Source of the DNA: a virus
Taxonomy: Duplodnaviria > Caudoviricetes
Virus record (IMG/VR): IMGVR_UViG_3300021400_000136
Location: 1 to 64,000 of that record
Reading direction: 5' to 3' (one strand)
Length of the DNA: 64,000 bases
The notes under the pieces are model-generated. The model searched no databases. It saw only the letters and a program-made list of their open reading frames with translations, and was not told the DNA's origin. This document shows, one piece after another, positions 14,942-55,289 of the stretch. Numbering within the stretch: position 1 is the stretch's first letter; each line of letters opens with the position of its first letter. The position numbers and the translations under genes are program-made.

Positions 14942-17900
14942 ATGCCTGATTTAATAAAGAAGAGACAAGAGATGACTGACTCCGGTACGGGCGATGTTAC
15001 CCCGGTTAACGTACCGGCTCCAACTCCTATTCCTCCGGCCAGTTCGCAGGCGGCTGGAAGAGCAGCGGCTCAGGCAGCGGCATCCGACCCTAATAAGCAC
15101 GCCACCCAAGCCGGTAAAGAGACTAGCGATGAGACTAATAAAAAAATGGGCTGGGGCGACTACGCAGAACCTACACCCACTCCTGAGTCCACACCCGACT
15201 ATTCCGGTTATTCCGAACCTACACCCTCTGCTGAGGATCTTGCAGCAGAGAATGCAGATAGCTATGAGTACAATCAAGCTGGAGAGACTCCGACCGTCAA
15301 GGCTGATGTAGCTGATGATACTGTCGAGGTTGCTGTCGAACCCGAGAAGCAGGAGGAGACCAGTAGCCAGGTGTCTAAAGGCAAGGAAGATGCTACGGCA
15401 ATGGGCGGTGTCGATGCCACTAAGATGGCGGAAGACGCTGTTATGCAAGGCCGTAGGGATGCAAGATACTATCCAGACTATACTGACTTCTATGGCGGGC
15501 TTGAAATTGATGGTACATCTCCGGATCGTAATGAACTGGATGAAAACGGCATGCACATATTCAAAGGCTATGAGGACGATGAGGGCAATTATGTCTCTGG
15601 CTTTGATGAGTGGTACAGTTCTAACAAGGCCGGTCTTACAGAAATAATTGACTTCGCTACCGATGGACAATTCCATACAGGTGATGAAGTGTATGCCCAC
15701 CAGAAGCTTGCTGCTAACCTTGCCTATGACTACCAGACGATGGCAGATTACTGGCAAGGTCGTATTGACGAAGCTAAGGAGTTTGTTGACTCCGCTCATG
15801 CTGATTTCGATGCGTTCAATTTTGACCAGTATGGTGAAGCGGGAGAGGAAGCAAAAGCAACCTGGCAGCAGGAACTGGATACGTTGGATGCCCAGTATGC
15901 TTCCATGGTCGAGGGTCTTGGTATCATCCAGGAGCATGGGGAAGCGGCAAAAGAATGCTATGATCTCATGGTGGAGAATAACAAGGCTTTTGCTCAGTAC
16001 GATGACGATAAGCTTCTTACTCAGGAACAGATAGATCAGCAGGTGTTGGATGCGGCGAAGAGCGCGAATGTGGCAACTGCATTCACTGATGAGGAGATAG
16101 CAGATTTCACTAAGCTCACCGACGAGCAGTGGGACGCGCTAATCGAAAGCGGTGAAGAGAGCTATGATAAGCGCCAGTTTAAAGCGCCTCCGATACCTAT
16201 CTTCAGCACTGAAGCAACCAGAGAGGAGCAGAGACTGGCTGACCTGCAGATCATGCGACAGGCCATCCAAGGGGCTCGTGATGCGGCTCAGTACAAGAAC
16301 GATGAGATTATGTTTGGCCGTAAGTATATCGGGCAGGATAATACTATCGCAGCTTGGGATGCAGCGGAAGCAGCACTCGAAGCTAATGCCCCGACAGCAG
16401 ATTCTACTCCGGAAGAGAAGGCTGCATACAACCATGAGCGCCGGTATATTCAGGAGAGAATTGATGCCTGCGAGTATAAGGCTTTCGTTGACGAGTATGC
16501 CGATGTAAGTGATTCAGATATTCGTCAAGAGCTTTTTGAAATGCGGTTTGGTAATGGCGAAACTACGACAGAAGATAGCGCGGATACTAATGACACAGCG
16601 CATAATTTGTTGACGGCAAAATCTGCTTACGATGCAGCAGAAGAGGCCTTTAATGAAATCGCCGAAACTGCCCGTCCTACATCGGCTGAGTACCTTGATG
16701 CATACCAGGCAATGAAAGAAGCGGAAGCTGCATACGCCGAAGCACTTCAGCTCGCGAAGGATGAGTCAAAACTCGATGTCGGTGAGATCTTCGACTTTTC
16801 AGCCTTTGCAGATATCTTATCTGGGGCGCCAGAAGAAAATGAACTCAGCGCCGAAGAGCAGAAAAGAGCTGAGTATCTCCAAAGATTGCTTCAGGATCGA
16901 GAGATATCGGCTATACAAGAAGAAATTAAGAGCTACGAAAAGGACTACCCAGATGGGACTGCTATGCGGCATTGGGCAGAAGATATCGAGCTCGACGTAG
17001 AAAAGAAAGAAGCAGCACTTCTGGACGCGCAGACAGAAGCAGGTAAGCTGGATGCAGAGGCTTATCAATATGCTACTGTAGACGCGCATAGTACAGAAAA
17101 TCATACGCCGGAAGAGGCGGCACAGAAGGCCCAAGAAGCAAAAGACGCGCACAATAGAGCACTGATCGCGGAGCAGGAGCTTGCTGAGGCGAAAGGAAAA
17201 CTCGCTCTTGTGCAGGCGCTGAACCAGACCAGTATCCGATCCGAAGCAGACTATGCCGAGCAGGTTGCCAAAGGTAAAGAAATGGCTGGAGATATAGCCC
17301 AGTATAAAGAGGCTATCGATACGGCGATGGATGTTGGGCTCGATAGGAAGCCTGCGGTTGATGCTCTCGTCACTCAGTTCGGCCTTACCCAAGAGGACGC
17401 CGAGAAGTACGTGGATATGTACTTCACACTGGACGAAAAGGAGAGGGCAGTACTTTTCCCAAATGTAGATGGAGTTGAGGAAGAGGAACAAGGCTGGCTC
17501 GGAAAATGGTGGGACAAAGTTACAAGGTCTCCGTACCTTGGTGAAAAAGAAGTAGGCAAATTTACTGACGAAGAACTGAATGACTTTTACTACCATCTTG
17601 CTAAGGAAGGTGCATCAGCTGCAGCTCAATATGCGATGGGTGTAAATAATGCCTATCGTAACGAGTACAACGATCTGGCGAAAGAGCGTTTCATGCAGTT
17701 GCAGAACTACAGGGCAGGTCATAATGGCAAGTTCCAGACTGCTGTAGAAGCGGCGATGATGCCTGTAGGTAACTTTGCGCTGAATCTCACAGCCCTTCCG
17801 GAAGCTATCAGTAATTTTATCCAGGCAGAAAAACTTGGAATGTCTGTAGCTCCTACCGATCCGACAAACAGCCAGTTGGCTGAATGGGCGCAGGAAAGTT

Positions 17901-20900: not shown

Positions 20901-23900
20901 GTAGCAACCCAATGTACTCTGCAGGTGGCGCATCCACTGGAGCATCTGTAGCTACTGGTAGTGAACTCAATATGAAGCCGGTTACGTACTCTGCTTCGGA
21001 TGTTCCCGGCCTTGTCGAGCTTGGCAGGACGAGCTATTCCCCCTCTAACCGTACTATTAGTTCCTCTGACCGTAGCTGGGGTGATGCAATCAGCAATGAG
21101 TACGGCAAGACCATTACTCGTGCAGAGTTCGTTGCAGCTGCTATGTCTGGACAGAATCTGTACTCCGGTACCAGGATGCCTACAATTTCCGGTGTTGCAG
21201 CTAACGATCTGTTCGATGATATTGTCGATAATAAGATTGCTTATGGCGGATATGCCGACAGAACCAATAACGGTTACAGTATAACAGACGCTACAGTTAC
21301 AGCGGATATGCTGAACGCTCCTGGTTTTGTCGGAGCTATGGCTAACACACTGGCTATCCTCGAAGCGGAAATGAGGTCGGCATCTGATACGAGCAATCAA
21401 AAACTCGCTCCGTTCATGAAGCGAGTAGATTTAGCACGTAAGCAACTTGAGGGCCTGCTTGGACGGAGTGTATCCGACGCGGCAACCGAAGTTACTGACG
21501 TACGAAATCAGATCAACACAAGACTTGCGGAGATTAATAACAGGCTTGAAGTACTGATGAGCCGGTCGGATCAGAACAAGATCGGCTATCTGGTAGACCT
21601 TAAAGAAATGTCCCAGCTCAGAGCAGAGCGTCAGAAGCTAATGACTCAGACGTTCAGACTTGGGCAGGCAGAAGCAAAGTACACGAAAGCTCTTGACCGT
21701 TTGAACTCGGCAAGAAACAGAATGTACTCTAATGATTATTATTCTTATATTGGAGGAAAATTATATGGCGGACCAGCGGGTACTCGTGGACTCACCGGCA
21801 GGAACAACGATGTGGCTCAGTCCAGAAGCGGCGGATCGGTTACAGGATCTGCCGGAGGATCAGCTCAGTCGGTACAAGGAAATGCAGGAACAGTCTCAGA
21901 GCAGACTTTTAAAACTGTTGAAGAAATACTATCCGCAGGAGGGCTGACACTCCGAGGCAAAGTACTATTCGATTCTGCCGGGATGTCCCCGCAGGAGATA
22001 GCAAATGCCAAGATCCCGTTGTCCCTTCGTAACAGCATACTCCACGCTATGCGTAATGGTGTTGGCCGTGTTGTACTTACTGACGGTGATCTGCTGAATG
22101 GTAAATCCTATATTAATGAAAAGGGTAAAGAAGTTGAGCAGACAGTCGGTGGATTCTATGACACTCTCATGGACGGTGGTACGGAAAGATCTGTTATTGT
22201 TCTGCACAAAGACAGCTTCACCGAAAAGAACATCCAACACGAATACATGCACCATATGCTCCGAAAGATGTCTGAGCGTCAGAAGCGCGGATTTCTTACC
22301 AGCGCTATCCGGACAATGTTTGGATCACGCCAGGATCTCTTCGAAGAACTGTTTGACTCCTACAAGATCGACTATGCAATTGCTCATGGCAGAGTGATCG
22401 ATGAGAACGGCAGAGTGGATGAAGATCTCGCATATATTATATATGAAGAGATGGTCGCCGACTTCTATGCAGGACTCAATCGATTCAAGACCCCCGAGAT
22501 GGCAGAAGCGATGGGGCCGCTCGTCAGGGAGATGCGTGTAAGCCTGTACAATTACTGTGAGAGACTTGGACTTGAGGACTACGCCAGATCAAAATGGATT
22601 AACAGAGAGTATACTCCTAAAGAAGGAACTCTGGACATCCGGAGAACCGGTAGAGCCACTGCGCCGTATGAGCAGCAGTTCAAAGAAAGAACTGAATCAG
22701 ACAACGAACTGGCAAAGGGCGAACACCGATTCAATCCAGAGCGAAATGCTTATGAGGCGCGATTTAGTTTGGCCAATACTATGGGTGGAATCTACGACAC
22801 ATATGGTGTGGACATTAATACTGCCGAGGATAGCAGACTTGACGAACTGGCGAGGCAAATCGACGAGGAGTACGAGGCAGCGCAAAAAGAGCAGGCTGAC
22901 ATTCGAAGCACATGGACGGATAAGGACTACGCAGATCTCACTCCCGATGAATATTGGGCCCGATATCATGAGTGGAATGAGCAGTCTGGCATTGACGCCG
23001 TAAAACGTCGCGTCGATACACTTGGGTCGTACAGTCGTGCAATCAGCAAAGAGAAAGCTTGGAGAGCGATAGACCCAGAGGCCCTTATTCAAAAGGCAAA
23101 AGATATCTACGGAACCACTGATGACTTCCGGAAATCTGGGTACATCCTGCCGGATGGAACGATGTTGGATATGTCCCAGGGTGCCAACAAGCGGACTCTG
23201 TTCCACCATGAGACCGCTCAAGAAGTTCTGTTCGCCTTGAAGTATCCGGCTTCAGACGCAATTGAAAAATTCGTAGGTCGTGGCGGGGCCATCAGAATCG
23301 ATGTAGACTCCGATGGTATTGATATCCCGCAAAGTGGCATGACCCCGGCTCAGTACGAAACCCTGCGCGACTTTCTTTCTGACTTCATAGCTACTGAAGA
23401 CTACGATAGAGCAGCATTCTATGTATCTACTTTTGGTAAGAACCTGGGAACGTCGGAGAGATTTAATCCTTCCAATACCACACAGATCTTAAACGCAATT
23501 CGCCAGTACTACGATACAGGTTCCTTCCCGAAACAGTCAACCACACAGCAGTTCTACGGTAGATATAGCCTGGCCAACACAGAAGCTGTATCTCTTGACG
23601 AACTTCAGACAGCTCGTGATGAGATGCTTGATCTGCGTCAGCAGCTCAGAGATCGTAAGGCTGATGTCGATGAGTGGAGCCGTAGAATTATGGCTGGTGA
23701 AGCTGAGATCGACGACTACAATAAGTGGCTGTCCGATAGCGGTTACAACAGACTCTACATGCAGGAACGTGAGGCAAGCAAACGGTATAACGACCTCAAC
23801 CGCGCTTATGACGAGCAGCAGGAGAGCGCGAATGCCGAAGCCGAGCAGAACGCAATAGAACAGTCCGGCTTATCCGAAGCAGATTACTTTGGCAAAGAAG

Positions 23901-26900
23901 CCGTAAAGGTATTTGGTTATACACCGTACTTCTATGACGCTGGGTACATTACTCCGAACGGACGGATGCTGAACTTCTCCGGTGAGAAAGGTAAGCACTA
24001 TGGCTCTCGAGGCCAGGATCACCGGAGCATAGGCCAGATCTTTGCGGTAACTTCCGGCACAGAAGCCATGAACAGGTTTATCAGCTATGGTAATATCCGC
24101 ATTATGGCAGAGGCTCCAGGCCTGGATATCAGCGCGAATATCGAACCGACAGCAGAGCAGTACTCTAGGATCCGTGACTTCGCAAGGAGCGCACGGGATG
24201 AGGACTACTTCAGTATCGATATCACGGGCGAAGATGGTAGGGTCATTGATACAATCGAGTACGAAAGCGTCAACCCAGCGAAGATAGTAAACGATCTGAA
24301 GAACTACTACCGTACTGGTGAAGTACCGCAGCAGTCTGTTACTGCGCAGTTCCATGCTAGCTTTAGCCTTGTTGGCGTTTCAGATGATGGTATGGAGGTA
24401 TACGAAACCTCTCAAGCCGTAAAAGATATGACCAGGGAAGAACGTATGGACGCTTTCGAAGCACGAATGGCTAACGAGTTCAGAGGCCGTACCGCTAGAT
24501 TCGAAAGAAACGGTCATATCTACTATGCTAAGTTCGATAGTACTGGCGTTTCTAAAAATATCTATGGGGACGACAAGTCTGATCAGTCCGGATGGAGAGC
24601 CAAGATAAGAGCCGGAGCAGATGGCGATATCTTTGATCTGATAGAGAATTCTACTTATAATGGCAGCAGCGCAGAAAAGAGTGGAAAAAAAGGTAAGGCC
24701 CATAACAAGACCCAACGCTGGGACTACTTCATAAAGAAGGTCCAGATCGATGGTATTGTGTATGACCTCACTGCAAATGTAAGACGTAAAAACGATGACT
24801 TCGTTTATAATATCCAGCTTAACCGGGATATTAATACAAAACCGGCGACGTCTTACAGCCCACTCCCGAAGGCGGGTTTTAACCAAGACATCGCCGGTAC
24901 AGATAATGTATCACAAAACGGCTCAACTGTCAAGTACAGTAAGCAGGAACATCCGAATGCTAGGTACAGCCTGTGCGCATTTGAAGACGGCACAAAGTTC
25001 GTAAACGTCGAAACAGATCAAGAACAGTTTGATGGACTAACGGATAAAGAAAAGCGCGACTTAGCAGAAAAAATAATAAAAGAGCGGTTCTCCGGGAGAA
25101 TAATCGGTGAGACGAACAAAGCCTTCGTCAATAGCCAGACTGCAAGAGAGTATGCTTATCCGTCAAAACGCCTTACAGATAGTGGGGTACTTGACGCTAA
25201 GATGAGGGCGTCAACCGAACTAGATAATCTACTGGAGGCCGGTAGTAATTTTAGGACGGCACCTGATGGGGCTGACGGGCATACACACCCAGACGCCGTA
25301 GGAGGATTCACTTATTTTGACACGCTGTTTAAAGTAGGTGAGGAATTCTATAAAGGTCTTGTCAATATTAAGAATAATGCCAAGGGCGCTCTTCTAGTAG
25401 ATATTACAAAAATAGAAAACGTCACTAAGGACACATACAACTCATACGGAAAAAATCCGAAGTTCGTATTCCTTAATGACGTTTCTAATGATATTAAATC
25501 ACAGAATAACCCGAATGTCAAGAACCAAAATGAATCTGAGCCGAGCTACTCCATCGCTGTCTCCGATCCCGATACGTTGGACTTCCTTAACGACCAACTC
25601 GAGAACGGGGATGTAGTTTACACCTACAAATCCTTCCTTGAGTACGAAGACGAGAATGGAGATCCGTATCTAATTGCTCCTATGGCTGGTGTGCAGAAAG
25701 ACGAGACGGGCAAGAAGAGCCAGTCGCATGCCCTTCGTCCAGGTGTGTGGGAAGAGTCTGTTGGTAATCCCAACTCTAAGAGCCTCGGTAAGAAAGTCAA
25801 TGACAAGACCGGTGAAGTATCCTGGACTTATGGACTTGAGAAGAGTGACGTAGATGGTTCTGTTGTACCGGCTGCATATAACCCGTATCAGCACTCCAGT
25901 GATGTAGTTCTCAATGACCAGTTCTCCATTGCGTACAAACGTCCAAACCTGGTAACGTATATGTGCGCTATTCCTAAGAGTGAACTGACCAGTGGCTATC
26001 ACTTTGGTGTAACCGATCCTGAGAAGGCAACTCGTTCTGACGGCGATATTGTTACCGCAAAAGACGCGGTTGGTATGCACGACTGGAAGAGCGGTTCCCT
26101 AGCAAGCCAGTTAGAAAACACACAAAGACATGTGTATCTTTCTCGGTGGCTCATGCCGGTACGTAAGCTGTCCAACATAGAAGTTGCTCAGCAGTACAAG
26201 GAGATCCTCGATAGGGAAGCACCCGGTCTTGGTGTGCCATTCAATGTTGTACCTTCCGGTTTGCTCTCAGCTCTTCAGGAAGTTGGCGTTCCAATTGACC
26301 TTACTGGTACAGGACTATCTGAAGCCAACTACAGAAAATATCTTTCTGAAGTAAACGCTGCTCGTGAAGAGGCAGGTCTTGAACCGTTCCCGTACTCTTA
26401 TCAGACTAAAGCCGAAAGAGATGCCGCAAAGAAAGAACGGAAGAACGCTTCCAAACGGTTCTCGATCTCTGGAGACAACCTTGATAATCTTGACGATCTT
26501 CTGATGGATTATGATCTTTCGGATCTCGGAAGAATAGTTTCTGACACATTTGGTTCTACCTTTGAAACAGAAGAGGACGAAATGCCTCCTGAACTTCCGT
26601 ACGAACAACAGCGTCCTAGAAGATCTGTAGAGAACCCGACTCACAATCCAACTGCTTATCTGAAACCAGAAACACTAAATGCATGGCTGTCCGGAAGGGG
26701 CTTTGCCGATACAGGTAACCCGAACTATGCGCAGGCTTACATCGGATGGATGAATCCAGAGGACTTCCTATACTTGACAACCTCTACCTATGATTACGAG
26801 GACAATAGAGTAAGGGCGGAAGGATACTACGGTGATCTGGAAGATATCTCTAGCAGGGCGCAACGTGGAAGAGAAGCCGATACAATTCATCTTTCAATTG

Positions 26901-29900
26901 ATTCTGAAACAGGAAGAGTATACGGGCATGAAGGGCGCCATCGTATGGCCTACCTGCAAAGCCTTGGTGTGGAGAGAGTCCCTGTTCTTTTCTTTGACAG
27001 CGGAAATAAGTATGATAAGGAAATAATGGAGGACTATACTCTATCTGGAGAGCAGAGGCCAGGGAAGAAAGTTACTCTCGATAATCCTCTGATCCCTCTC
27101 AGCAATGGGTACAGAGGGCTTGTCGAGAACGAGTTCGTTAAAGGCGAAGAGCAAGACAACGATCTTCAGACAGCGCGATTTTCCATCACGGACGATTCGA
27201 ATGCCGATGGCTATACTCTGTCAGATATTGATTCCACAGGAAGAGAATTGACGGACGAGCAGTATTACTACTTCCGCAATTCGAAAGTAGTGGACGAAGA
27301 TGGGCATTTAATTCCGCTTTACCATGGAACGAATGCATTCGGCTTTACCGAGATAGACTTCGATAAAGCAGACGATGGAATATCCTTCTTCCTCACGGAT
27401 AGTCCAGAAGTGGCCGGGTCCTATACAAGGAACAATACTGTCCGATCCTTATTTGATAAGCAAAGACAGCGGCGGGCGATTGATGTATCAAAGCTTTCGG
27501 ATGAAGATCTAGCTTCGCTGTTTTCCCAAGTTAGTATACCGTACTTCGAATCAGCTACCGTATCGAAATTTGAGGATGTACTCAGAACCTTCACAGGCCC
27601 ATTGAACGCCGCAAAAATGCGATACGCCAGTTTCTTTGAAGAAGAACTGTTACCGTCCAGAGAAGATCTTGGCCTTACTGAAACGGACTTAGCCTTCTAC
27701 GACGCGCTGAAAGGCAACAGCACTAGTGTCGAAAGCATCATAGATTTGCTTGATAGAGCAGATAAATTCTATTATAGCCTTCGCAAAAAGATATGGGATA
27801 CCGACGAAAGCTATATTTGGGACGAAATGCGATCGCTGCAACCGCAATTACAAACCGCAGCTTCTCAGGCACAAAGATTTCTGGCTGACCATAATTCTGC
27901 TGGAGTATCTTTGGAGGATAATGTTTTTATTACGGATCCAGGTAGCAAGAATTTCTACACGAGAGAGCAAATCGAGAGACTTACTGGCAGAAGACAAGAG
28001 GAAGAAGAGCTCGGAAGGAACTCTGCCGGTATTTACAAGGGGTACGCAAATCTAACAAATCCATTTATTGTTGATGCAAATGGAGCTGAATGGAATCAGA
28101 TTCCGGTCGATCAAGAAGTAGTAGACTATCTAAAAGCACTTAATTCGCCAGAGTTCTACGTCTCAGAATGGGCAGAAGACGGAGAGGTTAAAACAAGGGG
28201 AATAGCTAAGTACGCAAAGGATCACGGATATGACGGCGCTATAATTAGAAACTGTGTTGACATCGGAGAGTATAAGCGTTCCTACGACTACGAAGCGTAT
28301 TCTACTCCGGCAACTCTGGTGCTATGCTTTGAACAGAATCAGTTCAAAGACTATAGAAATACAGAACCTACTGATGGCATTGATTTAAGATTTTCTATTG
28401 CCGATACCTATGACGCCTTTGGAGATGAAATCGATGTCCAAGATGGAACAGTTCTGAATGCAACCAAGTCCACACTTTCTGATCAGCTTTTCTATTCTGA
28501 AGACGGTAATACCGCCTACTACCAGCTCGACTCTGGTGAGACGGTGGTTATGGAGAACGTAGGGGAAGACTCTCCCGAAGCACGATACATTAATTTCTTG
28601 GAGGCAACGAACAATGCCAACAGTACTGACACAACCACAGCAAAACCTTATACGATACCTCCTGCAACTCGGTATGAATCTGATGGATATAATATCGGTG
28701 AATCGAATGATGGCCTACGACGAGGAGCGGAAGAAGTTCCTTCGGCGAATCAAGAAGGAACACTTCGACGTGCAGGAAGTAATGGAGAACGCAATGAACA
28801 GAGTCAACCGCAGAGTGAAGAGGCGGAAGGTGTAAGGTTCTCTGCCACTATCCCGACAGCTGACGACCCGAACCATCCGACAGCCTTCGTCAACCAGAAC
28901 GGCGATGTGGTTACCACTGCTGAAGCTTACCCGTACGGATCTATGGAGCGCATGATCATCGAGGCATGGAACACTGGTGACTTCAGATCTATTGAGGACC
29001 AGATTAACGAAATGCTCGATATCGGCCACGCCAGAGATGAAGTCTTCGATATGATGGAAGAGATCGCTGCACAGCCTCTGGGGCTTACTCCTCAGGAGCG
29101 CGACGCAGTCTACAGACAGATCGAAGAGATGCGTGTACGGTATGGAACGATGCCGTCGGCGAATGTTACGAAGCGGGATGTACATTTCCCAGTAGCTACA
29201 GACGACGACACCAAACTGATGAAGGGCGCACAGACCCATGCACAGGAGGCCGAGACCGAGTGGCTGTCTGAAGAGATCATGGCAGAAGCACTCCGTAACG
29301 AGATTCTCTCCTATGTCCCTGCATCTAATAAGTCCTCCATCGAAAAAGCGGAAGACTATATCAAAGCGAAGAAAGGTAATTACGAAGAGATCGCAAGAGA
29401 TGTCCACGCTTGGCTGGCATCCGGAGAGCGTGTCAAACCGTGGCAGGTAGCAGTCGGCGAACTCCTTCTTAAAGAGGTAGAAACCGAAGGCAGAGCAGAC
29501 CTCGCTATGTCTCTCGTAATAGACCTTACTCTTATGGCCCATGAAACCGGACAGGCTCTGCAAGCTTTCGCTATTCTCCGGAAGGCGACTCCGCGTGGAC
29601 AGCTCTACTATCTGCAAGGTGTTGTTAACCAACTGAATAAAAAGTATGAGAAACAGATCCGAGAAGGGAAGATGGGCAAGATCGAACTTCCGCAGGATGC
29701 TGCGCAGAGAATGCTCGCATGCGAAACACGGCAGGAACTGAATGACGTAGTCGAGGAAATAAAGGACGAGATCGCGAAAAAGATTCCTGTATCATGGGCT
29801 GATCGCTGGAACGCATGGAGATACCTGGCTATGTTGGGTAACCCCAGAACACACGTTCGTAACATGCTTGGTAACGGCCTGTTCCGTCCCGCCGTATTTA

Positions 29901-32900
29901 TCAAAGACGTTATCTCCAGAAGACTGGAGGATATAGCAAGTAGGCACGGCAAGCTGGAAGGTAGGTCTCGTATAGCAGGAGCGAATCTGAAATCCGATAC
30001 GGAATGGATGCGCTATGCCAACGAAGACTATGAGGAAATGTACAAGATCCTTGTAGGCGAGGCAACCGGTAATAAGTATGCTGATGCCAACGACATCCTC
30101 TCCAGACGAGATCTCTGGGGTAAAGACAAGTGGCTCGGTGGTAAGTTCCTTGCATGGGCAGACCGTAAGAACAGCGACTTACTTACTAAGGAAGATGCTA
30201 CATTCCTAAAGAAGTACTACACCAGAGCGTTTGCAGAATTCCTGCAGGCGAGGGGTGTAACGGAAGAAGATCTCCGTGATAAGAAGTTTGGCGCTACCAA
30301 GGCAAATAAGAAGCTCATCAACGAAGCAAGAGCATGGGCAACAATCGAGGCTCAGAGGAATACCTACCGTGATGCCAATGCAGTAGCTTCCTGGCTTAAC
30401 TCCATGAAGCGTCAGGGTACTGTTCCTTACACAATCCTCGAAGGTGTTGTTCCGTTCACCAAGACCCCGATGAACATCCTTGCCCGTGGTATTGAGTACT
30501 CTCCGATTGGACTGATTCAGAGCGTACGGCAACTGGCTAAAGATCTTCGTAGTCCGAGCGAGATGACCACCAGCCAAGCGCTGGATAGACTCGCTGCCGG
30601 TATGACCGGTACGATGATCGTTGGCCTCGGCCTGTTCCTCACTGCTATGGGCTGGCTCCGTGGAAGTGGTGGAGATGATGATAAGAAGAAAGAGTTCGAA
30701 GAGCTCATGGGTCATCAGGCATGGTCTCTTGAACTGTTTGGCTACAGCTACACCATCGACTGGATGGCACCGGCTGCACTGCCACTCTTCATTGGCTCCG
30801 CTATCTACGATATGCTGGCGACAGAAAGGGAAGAGGAGCTCGGCTTCGAAGATATCGTCAAGGCACTGCTTGGTATAGCGGATCCTCTCAGCCAGTTGTC
30901 CATGCTGGATGGTATCTCTACTATGCTCTCCAACCTGGCGGATGCACAGGGGACGGAACAATTCTCCGTATTACTCTGGACTGCACTGACAAGCTATGTT
31001 GGACAGGGTATGCCTACACTCCTTGGGCAGGTAGCTAGAACATTCGATCCGGATAGACGGTCAACGTATATCCAGCCGGGTAGCAAAAACCCGATGCTGC
31101 AGCGGTTTATCCAGTCCTCCATACAGGCTAAGATCCCGGGTTGGGAGAACCAGAAGATGCGGTATGTGGATAACTGGGGTAGAACAGACTCAGCCAATAC
31201 ACCTTGGGAGAAATTCCTAAAGGGCGTTGAGAACTTCCTTTCACCGGGTTATCTGAACAAGATCGAGACCTCCGCTGTTGAGGACGAGCTGATGAGGCTG
31301 TACGAAGCAACCGGAGATAAGAACATTCTGCCAGACAGAATGGGTAAGTACTTCCAGGTTGACGGAGAACGGAAGAACCTCACAGCAGATGAGTACGAGC
31401 AATTGCTCACGGAAAAAGGACAGATGCACTATAACCTTCTGAACGAGGTTATGTCCTCTGAGTATTACGCTTCTCTGACTGATGAACAAAAGGCAAAGCT
31501 GCTCCTCAACGCTGGAGAATTCTCAAAGAACTACGGCAAGCAGATGGTAGATCCAGAGTTCGATATGGACAGCCACTGGATGGATGTAGCAAGGGCAATA
31601 GGCCCCGCCGATTATCTGATGATCCAGGATGATCTTTCCCACAACAGGACTCATGACCAGCTGTTCACCTACCTTGTATCCAATCCGAATCTCAGCTACG
31701 ATCAGATCGCATATCTCATCGCTGATGAATATGCCGCTCCGGACAAGATTCCCAGTGTCGGTAACAACGGCTACAACTATGAGATCACTGAGGAAGATGA
31801 GGCAGCGATGCAGGAGATCTTCAAAGATCTGGTACATACGCGCCTTGCTGAATTAGAGACTGATCCCAGGTATGTTGCAGGCGATGAGTACAAGAAGGGC
31901 GATATGATGGACAACCTCTATAATGAAATTAAAGAGGATGTCAAAACAATATACGCCGAACAGCTCGATGCATCCGACCGTCCGATGGTACTTGGAAAGG
32001 CATCTTCTGTAGGAACCGAGTCCTTTAATATGGTACTCGATCTTACACGTAACGAGATCGAAGGAGAGTACAGGGATGACATCGCAGCACAGGCTGGATG
32101 GTTAAGCCAGAAGTACCGGGCTGACTCCCAGATCAGTAACCCCGATAGAGACGGCTGGGATATCAAGCTCAGTGCTGATGACAAGGACGAGCTGTATGAT
32201 GAATTCCAGAAAGCTTGGGAGCCTGCATACAGAAAGATGCTTACTGAAGATCCTGAGTTCCGCAACGCCACAAGCCGAGCATATCAGGATAAGATGATAG
32301 CATCCTTGTTCAATGAAGTTTCCCAGCAGGTAGAAGATGCATACGCTTCTAAACTGTACAAGTCCGGTAAGGCTGATGAAGTCATCGGCGATCCGAAGGG
32401 GACGGCAAAGAAAGACTGGCTGAAGAACTATGAGATTGCCAACGAAGCCTACACCAATCCTAAGGATCAGGCAGCGTGGTTAGCAAAGAGATTTACCGGT
32501 GCTACCACTTTGGACAACCCCGACAGACCTGGGTACAATATCAAGACGAGCGATGCACAGCAGGCTCAACTTGCTCAGATCGAACAGGATAGATTCACTG
32601 CCGAATATGAAGCAATGAAGAAAGATCCGAAGTTCAAGAGCATGACACCGGAAGAGCAGGCTATCCAGACATACCAGCTGGCGCAGAACATCATGGATGT
32701 CGAAGAGGCCAAATACTCCAGATATCTGCTGGATAGAGGCGCAAAGATCGAACAGGCAATCGATACTCAGTGCACGAATTCTGAATACTTCAATATGGTA
32801 TTCTCAGAAGATCTCACTGATAGCGAACGGTACGACCTGATCGAACAACGCTATGACAGATATGTTGGTAAGAGTATTCTCAATAACTCCCTCGACTACC

Positions 32901-33328
32901 TCCAGCAGCACCAACGTGTCGGGTACTACATGGACTACGTACGTGAGAACATGTATAAAGTCGCTGGACTTACCGGAGCAGAGGAAGCAGAAGCTTATAT
33001 CAAGAAGATCCATGAACCGGCGATGAAGGCATCCGGAAATGCGATCAAGGCAGACTATAATTTAGCCAAGACCACGGCGGAGGCAGATGACGCGGCAAAG
33101 ATAGCAGCCGGATATAACTACGGTATGCATCTCGGAACGGATCTGAATACTGTGGCGCCTAACACTACACCGGCGGAGGCTTCGGTAAGACCGAGGAACG
33201 GATATGTTATACCTCCTGCGGCTACAGAGAATACGCCAGAAACAAAACAAAGAACCAACTCTGGACTCGTGATCCCGACAGCTAACGAAGCTGTACAGGA
33301 CGCATTCAAGTACAGAAGGTTCTGGTAA
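14942..33328 (+). CDS. Giant polyvalent (virion-injected) protein, 6128 aa: zincin peptidase, duplicated unknown domain, two LPD3/BECR-like domains, ParB-like, ART-PolyVal-like, C-terminal LPD38-like
   Basis: GGAGG RBS and an uninterrupted 18.4-kb ORF. HEYMH (22238-22252) with downstream EEMVAD; H..F/W.YF..I/V.G..Y..NI/V motifs (24360-25550); GHEGRHR (about 26924); YHGT (27320)..FFLTDS..GYDG; C-terminal WLRGSG..WSLELFG.SYTIDW.AP. Confidence 0.85.
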   Translation: MPDLIKKRQEMTDSGTGDVTPVNVPAPTPIPPASSQAAGRAAAQAAASDPNKHATQAGKETSDETNKKMGWGDYAEPTPTPESTPDYSGYSEPTPSAEDLAAENADSYEYNQAGETPTVKADVADDTVEVAVEPEKQEETSSQVSKGKEDATAMGGVDATKMAEDAVMQGRRDARYYPDYTDFYGGLEIDGTSPDRNELDENGMHIFKGYEDDEGNYVSGFDEWYSSNKAGLTEIIDFATDGQFHTGDEVYAHQKLAANLAYDYQTMADYWQGRIDEAKEFVDSAHADFDAFNFDQYGEAGEEAKATWQQELDTLDAQYASMVEGLGIIQEHGEAAKECYDLMVENNKAFAQYDDDKLLTQEQIDQQVLDAAKSANVATAFTDEEIADFTKLTDEQWDALIESGEESYDKRQFKAPPIPIFSTEATREEQRLADLQIMRQAIQGARDAAQYKNDEIMFGRKYIGQDNTIAAWDAAEAALEANAPTADSTPEEKAAYNHERRYIQERIDACEYKAFVDEYADVSDSDIRQELFEMRFGNGETTTEDSADTNDTAHNLLTAKSAYDAAEEAFNEIAETARPTSAEYLDAYQAMKEAEAAYAEALQLAKDESKLDVGEIFDFSAFADILSGAPEENELSAEEQKRAEYLQRLLQDREISAIQEEIKSYEKDYPDGTAMRHWAEDIELDVEKKEAALLDAQTEAGKLDAEAYQYATVDAHSTENHTPEEAAQKAQEAKDAHNRALIAEQELAEAKGKLALVQALNQTSIRSEADYAEQVAKGKEMAGDIAQYKEAIDTAMDVGLDRKPAVDALVTQFGLTQEDAEKYVDMYFTLDEKERAVLFPNVDGVEEEEQGWLGKWWDKVTRSPYLGEKEVGKFTDEELNDFYYHLAKEGASAAAQYAMGVNNAYRNEYNDLAKERFMQLQNYRAGHNGKFQTAVEAAMMPVGNFALNLTALPEAISNFIQAEKLGMSVAPTDPTNSQLAEWAQESSSRQVTAMLPNFKPAEFLYNTYNSIVNSALSLATFSALGSALGLTDDIVIGGKGALQAFVSAATDLEFFGSAAASRYRELLEQGVDPQKAGWASVYSGLAEAMFEHFSIENLYHAKGVADWHNALDWAWHTACSAGVEGSEELFTNWANRLGDALYLKEDNPFNDSVDAYIAQGFEEDQALRFAMHDLLKEDALSFLGGAISGGVNAGSSSMMEWQIDKNKLADFRASQGKNFNIDLPNGKKASQELGTYLWNHEFIRPGDEHLFNEGQRNTVEEIKDLAWKASEGKASDEEIGRLQYLTAQFDSKVLDDFALANKDWYGRVEPMRLVQVSQEALNKLLGPENAQKYLEAVRANPHAKVENDFSLGLQQAVPNMGSNEASEVAGFLERIFTGSDRTTPEDIAKVLDSELLSSPEAQMYLWNYLKDKVPTDTPAIEVAAPAEPSGLTPSAEWAGQNVKREPSPIKPASQMETDSGTEAADREPTPIPSAEQAAENEKSREEAEAKAREEIQNPFIPIMQSIGMDPNITSENVGEALKNLLTTTWERAKEAAYQNQILKNGLSDTNRKLNDMQHEAAEQQTRDRLNRAPKGIKTDALAQYRDDSDSITFGNNTTTRKEFVEAYMKGYDPFNDKEIKGPKDEKAANRAFDRILLNSTTKDGLPLEGVKASMKNYDLSLRKAIVSDTKKGTGEPKDLERNGEPKAQEPASGKLNVQTPTDNSADMKEGTATGTEVTRNGEPDQTEPTDSKLNVQNPTDDSADMKDGTGTGTEVTRKGEPEQTEPTGGKLNVQTPADTSSDTTTGQTSVDGSELSRTEKPAEETPVEDQTTEEVAPDKAQQFLDYLQVMMQQTGEMTDEEFNALFGGATDTILDALVGREPANDFERRVIDAATREMDRRTSEDQTMAQQDEAPASAETSDFKTDDNLFATNGKEDKSWRSWDDTINNPDSNDDEIITRAEFVERAMNGVGKIKPMTFAEANDLFDDLAYIDEHDSDTNTDYGKKGSNPMYSAGGASTGASVATGSELNMKPVTYSASDVPGLVELGRTSYSPSNRTISSSDRSWGDAISNEYGKTITRAEFVAAAMSGQNLYSGTRMPTISGVAANDLFDDIVDNKIAYGGYADRTNNGYSITDATVTADMLNAPGFVGAMANTLAILEAEMRSASDTSNQKLAPFMKRVDLARKQLEGLLGRSVSDAATEVTDVRNQINTRLAEINNRLEVLMSRSDQNKIGYLVDLKEMSQLRAERQKLMTQTFRLGQAEAKYTKALDRLNSARNRMYSNDYYSYIGGKLYGGPAGTRGLTGRNNDVAQSRSGGSVTGSAGGSAQSVQGNAGTVSEQTFKTVEEILSAGGLTLRGKVLFDSAGMSPQEIANAKIPLSLRNSILHAMRNGVGRVVLTDGDLLNGKSYINEKGKEVEQTVGGFYDTLMDGGTERSVIVLHKDSFTEKNIQHEYMHHMLRKMSERQKRGFLTSAIRTMFGSRQDLFEELFDSYKIDYAIAHGRVIDENGRVDEDLAYIIYEEMVADFYAGLNRFKTPEMAEAMGPLVREMRVSLYNYCERLGLEDYARSKWINREYTPKEGTLDIRRTGRATAPYEQQFKERTESDNELAKGEHRFNPERNAYEARFSLANTMGGIYDTYGVDINTAEDSRLDELARQIDEEYEAAQKEQADIRSTWTDKDYADLTPDEYWARYHEWNEQSGIDAVKRRVDTLGSYSRAISKEKAWRAIDPEALIQKAKDIYGTTDDFRKSGYILPDGTMLDMSQGANKRTLFHHETAQEVLFALKYPASDAIEKFVGRGGAIRIDVDSDGIDIPQSGMTPAQYETLRDFLSDFIATEDYDRAAFYVSTFGKNLGTSERFNPSNTTQILNAIRQYYDTGSFPKQSTTQQFYGRYSLANTEAVSLDELQTARDEMLDLRQQLRDRKADVDEWSRRIMAGEAEIDDYNKWLSDSGYNRLYMQEREASKRYNDLNRAYDEQQESANAEAEQNAIEQSGLSEADYFGKEAVKVFGYTPYFYDAGYITPNGRMLNFSGEKGKHYGSRGQDHRSIGQIFAVTSGTEAMNRFISYGNIRIMAEAPGLDISANIEPTAEQYSRIRDFARSARDEDYFSIDITGEDGRVIDTIEYESVNPAKIVNDLKNYYRTGEVPQQSVTAQFHASFSLVGVSDDGMEVYETSQAVKDMTREERMDAFEARMANEFRGRTARFERNGHIYYAKFDSTGVSKNIYGDDKSDQSGWRAKIRAGADGDIFDLIENSTYNGSSAEKSGKKGKAHNKTQRWDYFIKKVQIDGIVYDLTANVRRKNDDFVYNIQLNRDINTKPATSYSPLPKAGFNQDIAGTDNVSQNGSTVKYSKQEHPNARYSLCAFEDGTKFVNVETDQEQFDGLTDKEKRDLAEKIIKERFSGRIIGETNKAFVNSQTAREYAYPSKRLTDSGVLDAKMRASTELDNLLEAGSNFRTAPDGADGHTHPDAVGGFTYFDTLFKVGEEFYKGLVNIKNNAKGALLVDITKIENVTKDTYNSYGKNPKFVFLNDVSNDIKSQNNPNVKNQNESEPSYSIAVSDPDTLDFLNDQLENGDVVYTYKSFLEYEDENGDPYLIAPMAGVQKDETGKKSQSHALRPGVWEESVGNPNSKSLGKKVNDKTGEVSWTYGLEKSDVDGSVVPAAYNPYQHSSDVVLNDQFSIAYKRPNLVTYMCAIPKSELTSGYHFGVTDPEKATRSDGDIVTAKDAVGMHDWKSGSLASQLENTQRHVYLSRWLMPVRKLSNIEVAQQYKEILDREAPGLGVPFNVVPSGLLSALQEVGVPIDLTGTGLSEANYRKYLSEVNAAREEAGLEPFPYSYQTKAERDAAKKERKNASKRFSISGDNLDNLDDLLMDYDLSDLGRIVSDTFGSTFETEEDEMPPELPYEQQRPRRSVENPTHNPTAYLKPETLNAWLSGRGFADTGNPNYAQAYIGWMNPEDFLYLTTSTYDYEDNRVRAEGYYGDLEDISSRAQRGREADTIHLSIDSETGRVYGHEGRHRMAYLQSLGVERVPVLFFDSGNKYDKEIMEDYTLSGEQRPGKKVTLDNPLIPLSNGYRGLVENEFVKGEEQDNDLQTARFSITDDSNADGYTLSDIDSTGRELTDEQYYYFRNSKVVDEDGHLIPLYHGTNAFGFTEIDFDKADDGISFFLTDSPEVAGSYTRNNTVRSLFDKQRQRRAIDVSKLSDEDLASLFSQVSIPYFESATVSKFEDVLRTFTGPLNAAKMRYASFFEEELLPSREDLGLTETDLAFYDALKGNSTSVESIIDLLDRADKFYYSLRKKIWDTDESYIWDEMRSLQPQLQTAASQAQRFLADHNSAGVSLEDNVFITDPGSKNFYTREQIERLTGRRQEEEELGRNSAGIYKGYANLTNPFIVDANGAEWNQIPVDQEVVDYLKALNSPEFYVSEWAEDGEVKTRGIAKYAKDHGYDGAIIRNCVDIGEYKRSYDYEAYSTPATLVLCFEQNQFKDYRNTEPTDGIDLRFSIADTYDAFGDEIDVQDGTVLNATKSTLSDQLFYSEDGNTAYYQLDSGETVVMENVGEDSPEARYINFLEATNNANSTDTTTAKPYTIPPATRYESDGYNIGESNDGLRRGAEEVPSANQEGTLRRAGSNGERNEQSQPQSEEAEGVRFSATIPTADDPNHPTAFVNQNGDVVTTAEAYPYGSMERMIIEAWNTGDFRSIEDQINEMLDIGHARDEVFDMMEEIAAQPLGLTPQERDAVYRQIEEMRVRYGTMPSANVTKRDVHFPVATDDDTKLMKGAQTHAQEAETEWLSEEIMAEALRNEILSYVPASNKSSIEKAEDYIKAKKGNYEEIARDVHAWLASGERVKPWQVAVGELLLKEVETEGRADLAMSLVIDLTLMAHETGQALQAFAILRKATPRGQLYYLQGVVNQLNKKYEKQIREGKMGKIELPQDAAQRMLACETRQELNDVVEEIKDEIAKKIPVSWADRWNAWRYLAMLGNPRTHVRNMLGNGLFRPAVFIKDVISRRLEDIASRHGKLEGRSRIAGANLKSDTEWMRYANEDYEEMYKILVGEATGNKYADANDILSRRDLWGKDKWLGGKFLAWADRKNSDLLTKEDATFLKKYYTRAFAEFLQARGVTEEDLRDKKFGATKANKKLINEARAWATIEAQRNTYRDANAVASWLNSMKRQGTVPYTILEGVVPFTKTPMNILARGIEYSPIGLIQSVRQLAKDLRSPSEMTTSQALDRLAAGMTGTMIVGLGLFLTAMGWLRGSGGDDDKKKEFEELMGHQAWSLELFGYSYTIDWMAPAALPLFIGSAIYDMLATEREEELGFEDIVKALLGIADPLSQLSMLDGISTMLSNLADAQGTEQFSVLLWTALTSYVGQGMPTLLGQVARTFDPDRRSTYIQPGSKNPMLQRFIQSSIQAKIPGWENQKMRYVDNWGRTDSANTPWEKFLKGVENFLSPGYLNKIETSAVEDELMRLYEATGDKNILPDRMGKYFQVDGERKNLTADEYEQLLTEKGQMHYNLLNEVMSSEYYASLTDEQKAKLLLNAGEFSKNYGKQMVDPEFDMDSHWMDVARAIGPADYLMIQDDLSHNRTHDQLFTYLVSNPNLSYDQIAYLIADEYAAPDKIPSVGNNGYNYEITEEDEAAMQEIFKDLVHTRLAELETDPRYVAGDEYKKGDMMDNLYNEIKEDVKTIYAEQLDASDRPMVLGKASSVGTESFNMVLDLTRNEIEGEYRDDIAAQAGWLSQKYRADSQISNPDRDGWDIKLSADDKDELYDEFQKAWEPAYRKMLTEDPEFRNATSRAYQDKMIASLFNEVSQQVEDAYASKLYKSGKADEVIGDPKGTAKKDWLKNYEIANEAYTNPKDQAAWLAKRFTGATTLDNPDRPGYNIKTSDAQQAQLAQIEQDRFTAEYEAMKKDPKFKSMTPEEQAIQTYQLAQNIMDVEEAKYSRYLLDRGAKIEQAIDTQCTNSEYFNMVFSEDLTDSERYDLIEQRYDRYVGKSILNNSLDYLQQHQRVGYYMDYVRENMYKVAGLTGAEEAEAYIKKIHEPAMKASGNAIKADYNLAKTTAEADDAAKIAAGYNYGMHLGTDLNTVAPNTTPAEASVRPRNGYVIPPAATENTPETKQRTNSGLVIPTANEAVQDAFKYRRFW
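19966..20285 (+). repeat. In-frame 120-nt tandem repeat (about 3 copies) in giant gene
   Basis: GEPxxxEPxxxKLNVQxPxDxSADMKxGTxTGTEVTR repeated; AAGCTTAATGT recurs at 120-nt spacing. Confidence 0.85.
21765..21947 (+). CDS. Nested +1-frame small protein (60 aa) inside the giant gene
   Basis: GGAGG (21752-21756), 8-nt spacer, ATG; MADQRVLVDSPAGTTMWLSPEAADRL...KKYYPQEG. The host frame turns into G/S/R/A-rich filler over exactly this span. Confidence 0.65.
   Translation: MADQRVLVDSPAGTTMWLSPEAADRLQDLPEDQLSRYKEMQEQSQSRLLKLLKKYYPQEG
24838..24898 (-). ncRNA. Candidate antisense small RNA 1 (closed 14-bp stem, inner C(UUCG)G hairpin)
   Basis: ACCGGCGAUGUCUU / AAGACGUCGCCGGU pairs fully on the - strand (U.G) but has a C-A mismatch on +. 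It starts 7 nt after a -10 box and ends in UUUU. Confidence 0.6.
24905..24933 (-). promoter_or_regulatory. Antisense sigma70/sigmaA promoter inside giant gene (TTGACA-N17-TACATT, extended TG)
   Basis: -35 at 24928-24933, -10 at 24905-24910, TGn present. Confidence 0.7.
25408..25486 (-). ncRNA. Candidate antisense small RNA 2 (closed 16-bp stem)
   Basis: GAAACGUCAUUAAGGA / UCCUUAGUGACGUUUU pairs fully on - (wobbles become mismatches on +). It starts 7 nt after the -10 box, is followed by UUUUU and contains CUUCGG. Confidence 0.6.
25493..25521 (-). promoter_or_regulatory. Antisense sigma70/sigmaA promoter inside giant gene (TTGACA-N17-TTTAAT, extended TG)
   Basis: -35 at 25516-25521, -10 at 25493-25498, TGn present. 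Confidence 0.7.
28614..28835 (+). CDS. Nested +1-frame small helical protein (73 aa) inside the giant gene
   Basis: GGAGG (28600-28604), 9-nt spacer, ATG; MPTVLTQPQQNLIRYLLQLGMNLMDIISVNRMM... The stop coincides with the next RFS linker motif, and the host frame is G/R/S/E filler here. Confidence 0.65.
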   Translation: MPTVLTQPQQNLIRYLLQLGMNLMDIISVNRMMAYDEERKKFLRRIKKEHFDVQEVMENAMNRVNRRVKRRKV

Positions 33329-33334
33329 AACGAC

Positions 33335-33379
33335 AAAACCCCCTACTACCGTAATAAGTAGTAGGGGGTATCTTTTTTT
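33335..33379. terminator. Bidirectional intrinsic terminator between the convergent halves of the genome
   Basis: CCCCCTACTAC (33339-33349) / GTAGTAGGGGG (33358-33368), with AAAA 5' and a T tract 3'. Confidence 0.85.
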
Positions 33380-34952: not shown

Positions 34953-35136
34953 TTTCGTTCTCCTCTTCATTATCGATCCAACTCCATTCGCTTGAGTTAT
35001 CACCTGTCCATATTGACATTTGTTGTTTCCTTTCAGATGAATTGCTCCAGTTAATCTGAAAGGAAATGTGCCAACAGCATAATCATTGCAGGCGATATAG
35101 CAAGCAAAATTGATTTAATGTTAATCATAACTGCTC

Positions 35137-51295: not shown

Positions 51296-52002
51296 GGCTC
51301 TAACCCTCTATTACATAAGCTGTTTGTTTTGTTTTTCATCTGGTCCTTTAGAGGTATCCAAGTACAATTCTCTGGGCAGTAATTTCCATAGACATTTAGG
51401 CGCTCAATTGTCAGTCCTTTACGATAACCGTTATTCAACGCCCACTCTCTGAAGGCCGGATAATCCAGCCACTCTTCGCATACCGTTATTCCTTTTGCAC
51501 CGTACCATTTATAATCGCGGCTGTTTGAGTTCAAGCACCGCTGCTTCAATGTTCTATGAACGTTGTATAAGTCCTCTCCGCAGAAGCCGTGCTTGGTTGC
51601 TTTCTCTCTATTCACATCGGCCGATAAACATCCGCAGCTCTGCGTAGTTTCTTCGCGCAGCCCTCGGTAAGGAATCCATTTCTCTTTCCCGCAATCGCAA
51701 TGACAAAAGCATCGAATGGATTTGCCCTTATATTCTTGGGATAAAACAGTAAGCCGACCTATCTTCTTCCCTACAAGGTTCTGTGCTTTAGCGTGTAGTT
51801 CGTCAATATGCAGACAGCCACAACTGCGAGTATCCCCGCTTAACAAATTTCCACTCGTAATAACTTTCTGATTTCCACAATCACACTGGCAAAGCCACCT
51901 AGCCTTTCCGGCTTTTGTGTTTTCAGCTGGAGCAATTACTACAAGCCTACCGAACCTTTGTCCCATTAAGTTCTTTCTGTTCCAAGCAGCCATATAAATC
52001 AA
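51292..52002 (-). CDS. Free-standing HNH/AP2-associated homing endonuclease-like protein
   Basis: Two NL.G.RFGRL.V..WLC.CDCG..SCGC repeats; YGAKGITVCEEW..F..WA..TIERLNVYGNYCPENC.W. Confidence 0.8.
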   Translation of the reverse strand: MIYMAAWNRKNLMGQRFGRLVVIAPAENTKAGKARWLCQCDCGNQKVITSGNLLSGDTRSCGCLHIDELHAKAQNLVGKKIGRLTVLSQEYKGKSIRCFCHCDCGKEKWIPYRGLREETTQSCGCLSADVNREKATKHGFCGEDLYNVHRTLKQRCLNSNSRDYKWYGAKGITVCEEWLDYPAFREWALNNGYRKGLTIERLNVYGNYCPENCTWIPLKDQMKNKTNSLCNRGLEP

Positions 52003-54842: not shown

Positions 54843-55022
54843 CCTTGGCTGCCTCCTTGTTATTTCGGAGATACTGCATGACGGCCTGCCATTCTTCCTT
54901 CAACGTAGGCATCATGACTATGCCGTCATTGCGATACTGTTTTTGTCGCCACTCGTTTTTCCTCATGGCATCTCTGTTCCGCTGTTTCTTTTTCATGCTT
55001 ACCTACCTTTTAAATAGAGTAG

Positions 55023-55104
55023 TGCCGGAGAGGGGACTTGAACCCCTACGGATTTCTCCCTCAGATTTTAAGTCTGATACGTCTACCGATTACGCCACTC
55101 CGGC
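55023..55104 (-). tRNA. tRNA-Leu(UAA)
   Basis: GCCGGAG/CTCCGGC acceptor, TCAGA-CTTAAAA-TCTGA anticodon arm, long variable arm, GTTCAAGTC; no encoded CCA. Confidence 0.88.
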
Positions 55105-55110
55105 ATATAA

Positions 55111-55175
55111 AGCCACCGGCTGGACTCGAACCAGCGACAACCATTACGGGCTCTAGCCATCTGAGCTACGGTGGC
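55111..55175 (-). ncRNA. tRNA-like RNA lacking an anticodon arm
   Basis: Intact acceptor GCCACCG/CGGTGGC, D arm GCTC/GAGC and T arm GCTGG-TTCGAGT-CCAGC. The anticodon arm is reduced to CCGTAATGG. Confidence 0.7.
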
Positions 55176-55192
55176 ATAGTGAATTTTAATAG

Positions 55193-55279: not shown

Positions 55280-55289
55280 TTGTGCGATC

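Follow-up and report, generated by a model that had tools for sequence, protein, structure and literature searches.

Candidate genes overprinted on the exchangeable modules of a giant phage polyvalent gene

The stretch of DNA analysed here (the window, 64,000 nucleotides (nt)) consists of the first 64 kb of the virus record IMGVR_UViG_3300021400_000136, a single contig of 80,151 bp. One gene of 18 kb accounts for 23% of this genome and encodes a protein of 6128 amino acids (aa). An earlier interpretation, made from the DNA letters alone (the sequence-only reading), had described the product as a giant injected polyprotein whose toxic domains carry antidotes encoded inside their own coding sequence; the open reading frame (ORF) at 14942-33328 is confirmed in the ORF list. 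On its domain content the product is a polyvalent protein of the Iyer-Aravind type (PMC5512222), namely a large multi-domain protein with LPD3 and ART-PolyVal domains, encoded by a phage near structural genes. Four units are embedded in its coding sequence: two ORFs in the +1 frame (ORF A and ORF B) and, on the minus strand, two candidate antisense small RNAs (units 1 and 2; Table 1). All four lie on main-frame stretches that are of low complexity, poorly conserved or predicted to be disordered.

The assignable part of the giant protein includes two LPD3 domains (domain 1, aa 3178-3288, E = 6e-8; domain 2, aa 3369-3482) and an ART-PolyVal domain, whose N-terminal part is matched at aa 4118-4165. 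All three matches lie above the Pfam cut-offs, in agreement with the ART-like domain and the pair of LPD3 domains recognized in the sequence-only reading. The ART-PolyVal module extends over about 27176-28390. The BECR-like fold that had been proposed for LPD3 is seen only among weak structural matches: a Foldseek comparison with the PDB has a best E of 0.018 and no match at E of 0.001 or below, and a fold search (VIA) returns Z of at most 3.8, with BECR RNase toxins (BrnT, MqsR, RelE-like, colicin D and CdiA-CT) as well as many NTF2-like proteins among its weak matches. In the AlphaFold2 (AF2) model of LPD3 domain 1, residues 1-165 have a predicted local distance difference test score (pLDDT) of about 85-94 and are followed by a tail (residues 170-200) with pLDDT below 40. 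A 'ParB-like' region had been proposed as well. Its GHEGRHR motif is visible by eye, but the region has no Pfam match at E of 1 or below, and a sequence search of the PDB returns noise.

A database search yields 108 giant relatives, which measure 3.4-7.8k aa and lie on contigs of phage size and whose domains include LPD23, PBECR3 and a DNA methylase; megablast of the giant gene against the phage collection gave no match, and PHROGs gave nothing useful for the protein. The comparison with relatives reveals a mosaic: the cassette aa 3529-3844 is 94% identical in one relative (L001) and the cassette aa 2874-3146 is 89% identical in another (L002), whereas the remaining protein is only 26-45% identical. 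The cassette borders coincide with a recurrent R[FY]S[LI] motif. These sequence comparisons support an exchange of domains of the giant protein as units at R[FY]S[LI] linkers, and the cassette-wise movement anticipated in the sequence-only reading is thereby borne out. We note that the segment aa 2606-3140 (22760-24360) consists of two paralogous cassettes without an assigned family, each of which begins at an R[FY]SL linker. Both share the motifs G-Y-I-x-P-(D/N)-G and F-x-(S/T)-G-(S/E)-(F/V)-P-(K/Q)-Q-S, and this domain is the one most widely shared among the relatives.

The two nested ORFs, which had been noticed as +1-frame genes behind a GGAGG site (starts at 21765 and 28614), are present and conserved in diverged relatives. 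Their starts are the only combinations of GGAGG and ATG in the giant gene, in any frame, and GGAGG itself is depleted there (14 occurrences versus 31 ± 5 in synonymous shuffles). Each is an open frame with start and stop conserved in diverged homologues and with selection in the +1 frame; searches of both products against Pfam, PHROGs and NCBIfam return noise only.

ORF B is intact, with identical ATG, stop and 73 codons, in four relatives (L001, L002, L004 and L006), that is, in five lineages including the window. Its mean identity is 0.80 in the +1 frame, compared with 0.62 in the main frame and 0.28 in the null. The pairwise differences at main-frame codon positions 1, 2 and 3 (for example [21,14,6] and [23,14,8]) follow the order +1-frame wobble > first > second position. 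A systematic screen for embedded ORFs by codon-position and third-position patterns covered the C-terminal 5 kb, where the sliding scan finds ORF B as the sole spike of synonymous-site conservation: the main-frame third-position identity is 0.88-0.95 over ORF B versus 0.42 ± 0.13 across the C-terminal 5-kb module. The AF2 model of ORF B (pLDDT 80) consists of four helices with a very basic C-terminal helix; compared with the PDB it has no significant match (E of at least 2), and a Noc/ParB-type DNA-binding domain is found with a TM score of 0.47 and E of 3. The module that follows ORF B is common to the largest relatives and is 37-45% identical to P0002-P0006 and P0014 over about 1600 aa. ORF B is kept with this C-terminal module also where ART-PolyVal is not among the listed Pfam domains (P0004, which is the L001 gene); by this distribution ORF B appears to travel with the C-terminal module and not with ART. 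A scan of metagenome contigs with an alignment of the ORF B region found one locus.

Two further observations concern the DNA just upstream of ORF B. Synonymous-site conservation begins to rise roughly 120 nt ahead of ORF B, with a third-position identity of 0.68-0.79 at 28490-28613. An element for translation initiation, or for another form of regulation, may lie behind this rise; no promoter is obvious by eye within this interval. In L010, which is near-identical to L006, a main-frame TAG (TTATTC to TTAGTC) occurs about 120 nt upstream of ORF B. This stop (at about 31-33) either truly divides the giant gene immediately ahead of ORF B or results from a sequencing error.

The main frame over ORF A is a Gly/Ser-rich low-complexity stretch. 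Counterparts with the same layout are found in L007/L008, L011 and L012. The 60-codon +1 ORF of L007/L008 keeps the start, the stop and the GGAGG with 8-nt spacing; GGAGG also stands 8 nt before the GTG start in L011 and 8 nt before an internal ATG in L012. All of these members, including that of the window, share the motifs W[VL][ST]PE and KYYP. Between the window and L007 the identity is 37% in the +1 frame (BLOSUM score 132) versus 26% in the main frame (64), and the null obtained by synonymous resampling is 12.8 ± 4% (z 9.1). The members in L011 and L012 (P0114 and P0116) come from an exhaustive hidden Markov model (HMM) search; both are +1-nested in a low-complexity stretch just upstream of the zincin-like module. 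L001 and L002 harbor their own nested +1 ORFs of 60-63 aa with Shine-Dalgarno sites at the same place; these are 40% identical to each other, and the zincin-like modules of both relatives are only about 27% identical to that of the window. The comparison of loci at the DNA level was made without the closest giant relatives P0005, P0006 and P0014 (each >5000 aa).

The zincin-like module directly downstream of ORF A corresponds to the peptidase domain of the sequence-only reading. Its HExxH-type motif HEYMH (aa 2433-2437; H98, E99 and H102 in alignment A12) is invariant in five relatives, but the module has no Pfam, NCBIfam or PDB sequence match. The module is found only in loci with an upstream nested +1 ORF (L007, L012 and L001 by tblastn, L002 by alignment), and L013-L019 contain neither the module nor such an ORF. 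This co-occurrence supports the view that ORF A travels with the zincin-like module. Neither the ORF A alignment nor the zincin alignment retrieved anything when viral contigs were scanned.

For both nested ORFs, the alignments indicate purifying selection in the +1 frame, in which they are better conserved than in the main frame. A six-frame fragment BLAST, tried as a blind search for ORFs in alternative frames, was dropped because main-frame conservation bleeds into the other frames; P0113, a 90-aa 'homologue' with DUF969, was discarded as it looks like a chimeric 706-nt contig.

The two antisense units, each a promoter followed by a stem RNA as originally described, belong to a family of 23 distinct copies. 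Unit 1 has the promoter TTGACA-17-TACATT (24933..24905; 10/12 in the promoter scan) and a hairpin with a fold z of -3.7; unit 2 has the promoter TTGACA-17-TTTAAT (25521..25493) and a hairpin with z of -5.0. The modules that correspond to LPD3 domain 2 in L014-L019 are 49-57% identical as proteins. At the DNA level all seven LPD3 modules, including that of the window, fold a common hairpin of about 77 nt, which in 7 of 7 is more stable on the minus strand, by 5-14 kcal/mol. The alignment of these seven sequences (A8) predicts 27 pairs; compensatory changes are seen in 11 pairs, and some of these changes are non-synonymous on both arms. The paired cells amount to 98.4%, compared with 86% in column shuffles (0/500) and 43-50% when the partners are slid by 1-3 columns. 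In addition, 22 cells hold a G-U pair; in the sense mRNA these would turn into C-A mismatches. The G-U pairs fit the minus strand only; therefore the functional strand is probably the antisense strand. The promoter lies at a fixed distance in 7 of 7 (TTGACA, TTGACT or TTGCTA; 17-18 nt; TAnAnT), and the main-frame residues across it vary among the seven modules. The unit thus shows what is expected of a cis-antisense RNA, a conserved antisense promoter together with a strand-specific covarying structure.

A covariance model built from the seven sequences recovers unit 1 of the window (model R1, E = 0.01-0.02), the corresponding unit of L013 and one unit of L007. It also finds the unit in 16 of 20 further LPD3 loci, directly after the domain, and three more are found by eye. 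The layout of unit 1 recurs behind the LPD3 domain of 20 related loci. The 23 distinct units have a TTGACA-like -35 element and a TAnAnT -10 element, with a spacer of 17 nt in 22 of 23, and the hairpin begins 0-10 nt past the -10 element. In the 18 units in which the -35 element overlies a Val codon, this codon is always GTC, compared with a background share of 21%; the invariance shows a constraint at the level of nucleotides and not of protein. The outer-stem sequence of the hairpin differs between LPD3 lineages while the structure is kept, and the LPD3 tail that encodes the RNA is the stretch for which the AF2 model predicts disorder. Each unit consists of one promoter and one hairpin, and a tandem RNA repeat array of the ToxI type is absent. 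Rfam has no match at gathering score in the window, nor at E of 1 or below in 24700-25700. A scan of genome contigs with the LPD3 alignment found one locus. The unit sits directly after an LPD3 domain in 22 of the 23 cases. In the remaining case (L007, 14613-14760 (-); L008, 11068-11215 (-)) it follows an ART-PolyVal domain at the junction of the two ORFs (4143 aa and >2669 aa) into which the giant gene is split, and it lies at the beginning of the ORF that contains a DNA methylase. LPD3 is hence not the invariable neighbour of the RNA unit.

Table 1. Positions in the window of the giant gene, its modules and the embedded units.
Feature	Position	Strand	Basis and details
Giant polyvalent-protein gene	14942..33328	+	ORF list; 6128 aa
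Nested ORF A, 60 aa, +1 frame	21752..21947	+	GGAGG 21752-21756, 8-nt spacer, ATG 21765, stop 21945-21947
Zincin-like module, aa 2336-2576	21947..22669	+	directly 3' of ORF A; HEYMH at nt 22238-22252
LPD3 domain 1, folded part	24362..24856	+	Pfam
Antisense unit 1	24822..24942	-	-35 24933-24928, TG-extended -10 24910-24905, hairpin about 24898-24841, U-rich tail
LPD3 domain 2	24962..25399	+	Pfam, E 1.6e-3
Antisense unit 2	25395..25530	-	-35 25521-25516, -10 TTTAAT 25498-25493, hairpin about 25487-25413, tail UAUUUUUGU
ART-PolyVal, N-terminal Pfam-matched part	27293..27436	+	Pfam, E 5e-12
Nested ORF B, 73 aa, +1 frame	28600..28835	+	GGAGG 28600-28604, 9-nt spacer, ATG 28614, stop 28833-28835
Conserved C-terminal module, aa about 4632-6100	28835..33241	+	hydrophobic segments; common to largest relatives
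Bidirectional terminator-like hairpin, 3' of giant gene	33338..33369		terminator scan; 12-13 bp stem

The simplest sceptical account holds that the units are not genes and that they are by-products of main-frame motifs, of structure in the sense mRNA (which might, for instance, pause translation behind a domain) or of chance. Promoter-like sites are indeed not enriched in this single sequence (17 found versus 24 ± 5 expected), two GGAGG+ATG ORFs of at least 60 aa occur in shuffles with P of about 0.1, and the hairpin arms also encode the conserved peptides VTKD and FLxD. The lack of promoter enrichment means that the antisense case rests on conservation in relatives. Here the account meets its difficulties: over ORF A and ORF B the +1 frame is conserved better than the main frame, the periodicity of substitutions tracks the +1 codons, and start, stop and Shine-Dalgarno site of the nested ORFs are kept at a main-frame identity of 33-45%. 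For the RNAs, the strand-specific G-U pairs, the GTC codon in all 18 units and the non-synonymous compensatory changes on both arms likewise speak against it. We regard the account as already disfavoured and very improbable.

Several points nevertheless weigh against the interpretation of all four units as conserved genes. Among the 100-nt windows of the region the hairpin of unit 1 ranks only 12th in stability, and the U-rich tail that usually follows the hairpin is U-poor in a few units of the family. The main-frame tail has a conserved motif, S-V-x-Q-N-x-x-x-V, which could be a protein motif that mimics a promoter; this is disfavoured because of the invariant GTC and NTA codons. ORF A is represented by few independent lineages (four to six), and its link to the nested ORFs of L001 and L002 is weak (hhalign probability 16%), so that homology between them is suggestive. 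The resampling nulls ignore shared ancestry and therefore overstate significance; the codon-position pattern, the third-position scan and the controls with slid partners are independent of them.

Taken together, the comparative evidence shows four conserved genetic elements that are linked to modules, and we consider it fairly probable that they are genes overprinted on the giant polyvalent gene, with regulatory or accessory roles. In the reading we favour, the polyvalent protein would be a chain of exchangeable cassettes that R[FY]S[LI] linkers join and that conserved regions flank at both the N-terminal and the C-terminal side. It would presumably be packaged in the virion and delivered with the DNA, for which phi24B gp47 is given as an analogy (bioRxiv 10.64898/2026.04.10.717836). 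ORF A and ORF B would be translated by internal initiation on the giant late mRNA, as the conserved GGAGG 8-9 nt before their starts indirectly suggests, and the nested proteins would thus be made in step with the giant protein, on which they might act as inhibitor, chaperone, processing or packaging factor. The two antisense RNAs, of roughly 65-95 nt, would start from near-consensus promoters of the sigma-A type; each would consist of one long hairpin and a U-tract (an intrinsic terminator) and would be complementary to the 3' tail of an LPD3 module. The host polymerase could make them without depending on late transcription, for instance in a lysogen or in the early phase of an infection. 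Such RNAs would be fully complementary to the LPD3 tail in the mRNA and could therefore silence or process it; by pairing with the giant mRNA or by binding LPD3 they may keep the module silent.

The sequence-only reading was more specific. In its antidote model each toxic cassette carries its own nested antidote, which protects producer cells or lysogens; spelled out for this gene, ORF A would inhibit the zincin, ORF B would neutralise ART or its neighbour, and the RNAs would serve as type I- or type III-like antitoxins of LPD3. The strict coupling in position between ORF A and the zincin-like module, and between the RNA and LPD3, is in line with this model. So is the hairpin, whose sequence varies by LPD3 lineage while its structure is kept, as for co-evolving partners, and BECR RNase toxins are among the weak fold neighbours of LPD3. 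The same fold search gives only weak matches, however, and no ToxI-type array accompanies the RNAs. The proposed tie of each unit to the adjoining enzyme domain holds for ORF A with the zincin-like module and for the RNA with LPD3 in most of its copies, but ORF B is retained beside the C-terminal module where ART-PolyVal is not among the Pfam domains listed for a relative, and one RNA unit follows ART instead of LPD3. Moreover, no embedded unit was detected in other cassettes, namely the repeated domains at aa 2700-3135, the cassette at aa 3535-3840 and the ParB-like region. We consider such antidotes somewhat unlikely, and the same holds for the corresponding view of the locus as a set of self-contained cassettes, in which an embedded +1 protein (zincin) or antisense RNA (LPD3) would neutralise a harmful domain and the pair would be shuffled together. 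The examination of homologous genes that the sequence-only reading had proposed did yield co-occurrence with modules, covariation and, for ORF B, reduced synonymous divergence, and its interpretation is partly supported.

Alternatively, the units could be passengers that are independent of the giant protein and occupy free coding space. The RNAs would then be made early by the host RNA polymerase and act in trans, for example by countering host defence as decoys or by regulating genes of the host or the phage, and the nested proteins would be unrelated accessory factors, ORF B for example a small DNA-binding protein. The near-consensus sigma-A promoters would require no phage factor, and the helical bundle of ORF B, with its basic C-terminal helix and weak similarity to Noc/ParB-type domains, would suit such a role. 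As polyvalent proteins are counter-defence arsenals (PMC5512222), more products of this kind would be plausible. Against passengers speak the outer stem, whose sequence is free to vary between lineages, which argues against a conserved target in trans, and the tight positional coupling of the units to modules across strong divergence, which suggests a functional link. We judge this alternative unlikely.

Each part of the favoured reading, that of overprinted and module-linked genes, has known relatives. Overprinted phage genes include Rz1, which occupies the +1 frame of the lambda gene Rz, and the overlapping genes of phiX174. As in the Rz1/Rz pair, each nested ORF is small, has a ribosome-binding site of its own and is fully enclosed, in the +1 frame, by a larger gene, with both reading frames preserved. 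The nested ORFs differ from that pair in that the outer gene is an 18-kb polyvalent gene, the nested genes lie in low-complexity or poorly conserved stretches and appear to travel with modules, and no family in Pfam, PHROGs or NCBIfam matches their products above noise. Phage cis-antisense RNAs are known from lambda (OOP RNA) and P22 (sar). As in OOP and sar, a short antisense transcript, here predicted, would have its own constitutive-type promoter and a hairpin terminator and overlap the 3' part of a coding sequence. In contrast to them, the present units recur as part of a domain cassette in the 23 copies and lie in a late effector gene and not in a regulatory gene, and they have no relationship to OOP or sar by sequence or Rfam. 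A third comparison concerns type I and type III toxin-antitoxin systems, such as hok/sok and ToxIN. The likeness, by analogy, would be an RNA beside or antisense to a potentially harmful protein, with a proposed silencing or neutralising action; unlike in those systems, there is no small hydrophobic toxin, there are no ToxI-like repeats, and the 'toxin' would be one domain of a protein of 6128 aa.

Overprinted genes and short antisense RNAs are thus known kinds of element, and what is new is that individual cassettes in a class of giant effector genes hold three undescribed sequence families. Iyer, Burroughs, Anand, de Souza and Aravind described the polyvalent proteins found in phages and conjugative elements in 2017 (PMC5512222). 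The present protein agrees with their description in its giant size, in the combination of LPD3 and ART-PolyVal domains with a module that has a metallopeptidase-like HExxH motif, in being encoded near phage structural genes and in being shuffled as a mosaic; it differs in the four conserved genes embedded in its coding sequence. By term searches, overlapping, antisense or small-RNA elements in polyvalent genes are not mentioned in that paper, and further literature searches on embedded elements in such genes found nothing.

One gene thereby yields three families without an entry in Rfam, Pfam, PHROGs or NCBIfam, namely an LPD3-linked structured antisense RNA (23 copies) and two families of nested proteins, all of which escape the usual gene-calling programs and catalogues of domains. 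In giant phage effectors, further genes can accordingly be packed densely into 'linkers' and disordered tails. The units also offer first experimental handles, a cognate RNA for LPD3 and a cognate peptide for the zincin-like module, and the simple design of the RNA (consensus promoter, hairpin, terminator) makes it directly testable. If the units do regulate or neutralise their modules, they would represent a new packaging of toxin-antidote or effector-regulator pairs, which recombine as one.

The surrounding genome harbors a capsid gene, a collagen-like tail fibre gene and an endolysin gene on the plus strand, and an integrase, a DNA polymerase, a primase-helicase and four tRNA genes on the minus strand. 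From this content it is an 80-kb genome of a temperate tailed phage. The host probably belongs to the Clostridia. A hint at the host group is L016, an LPD3-bearing relative, which is a prophage-like 72-kb contig of an Oscillospiraceae metagenome-assembled genome (SVKN01000003.1). A homing-endonuclease-like gene of the GIY-YIG/NUMOD3 type (128-817, +) lies just 5' of the major capsid gene (1110-2111). The DNA polymerase (51999-54335, -) is matched by PHROG profiles in two stretches, aa 3-453 and aa 576-778; the segment between both halves (phrog_26005, aa 467-576) has no function assigned and may be an insertion. The tRNA genes form a cluster at 55022-55643 (-) and consist of Leu-taa, His-gtg, Ile-tat and Gln-ttg. 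Downstream of the giant gene, inside a block of minus-strand genes, the most stable 100-nt window within 12-36 kb is found at 35021-35120 (minimum free energy -32.2, 36% GC, z -4.0).

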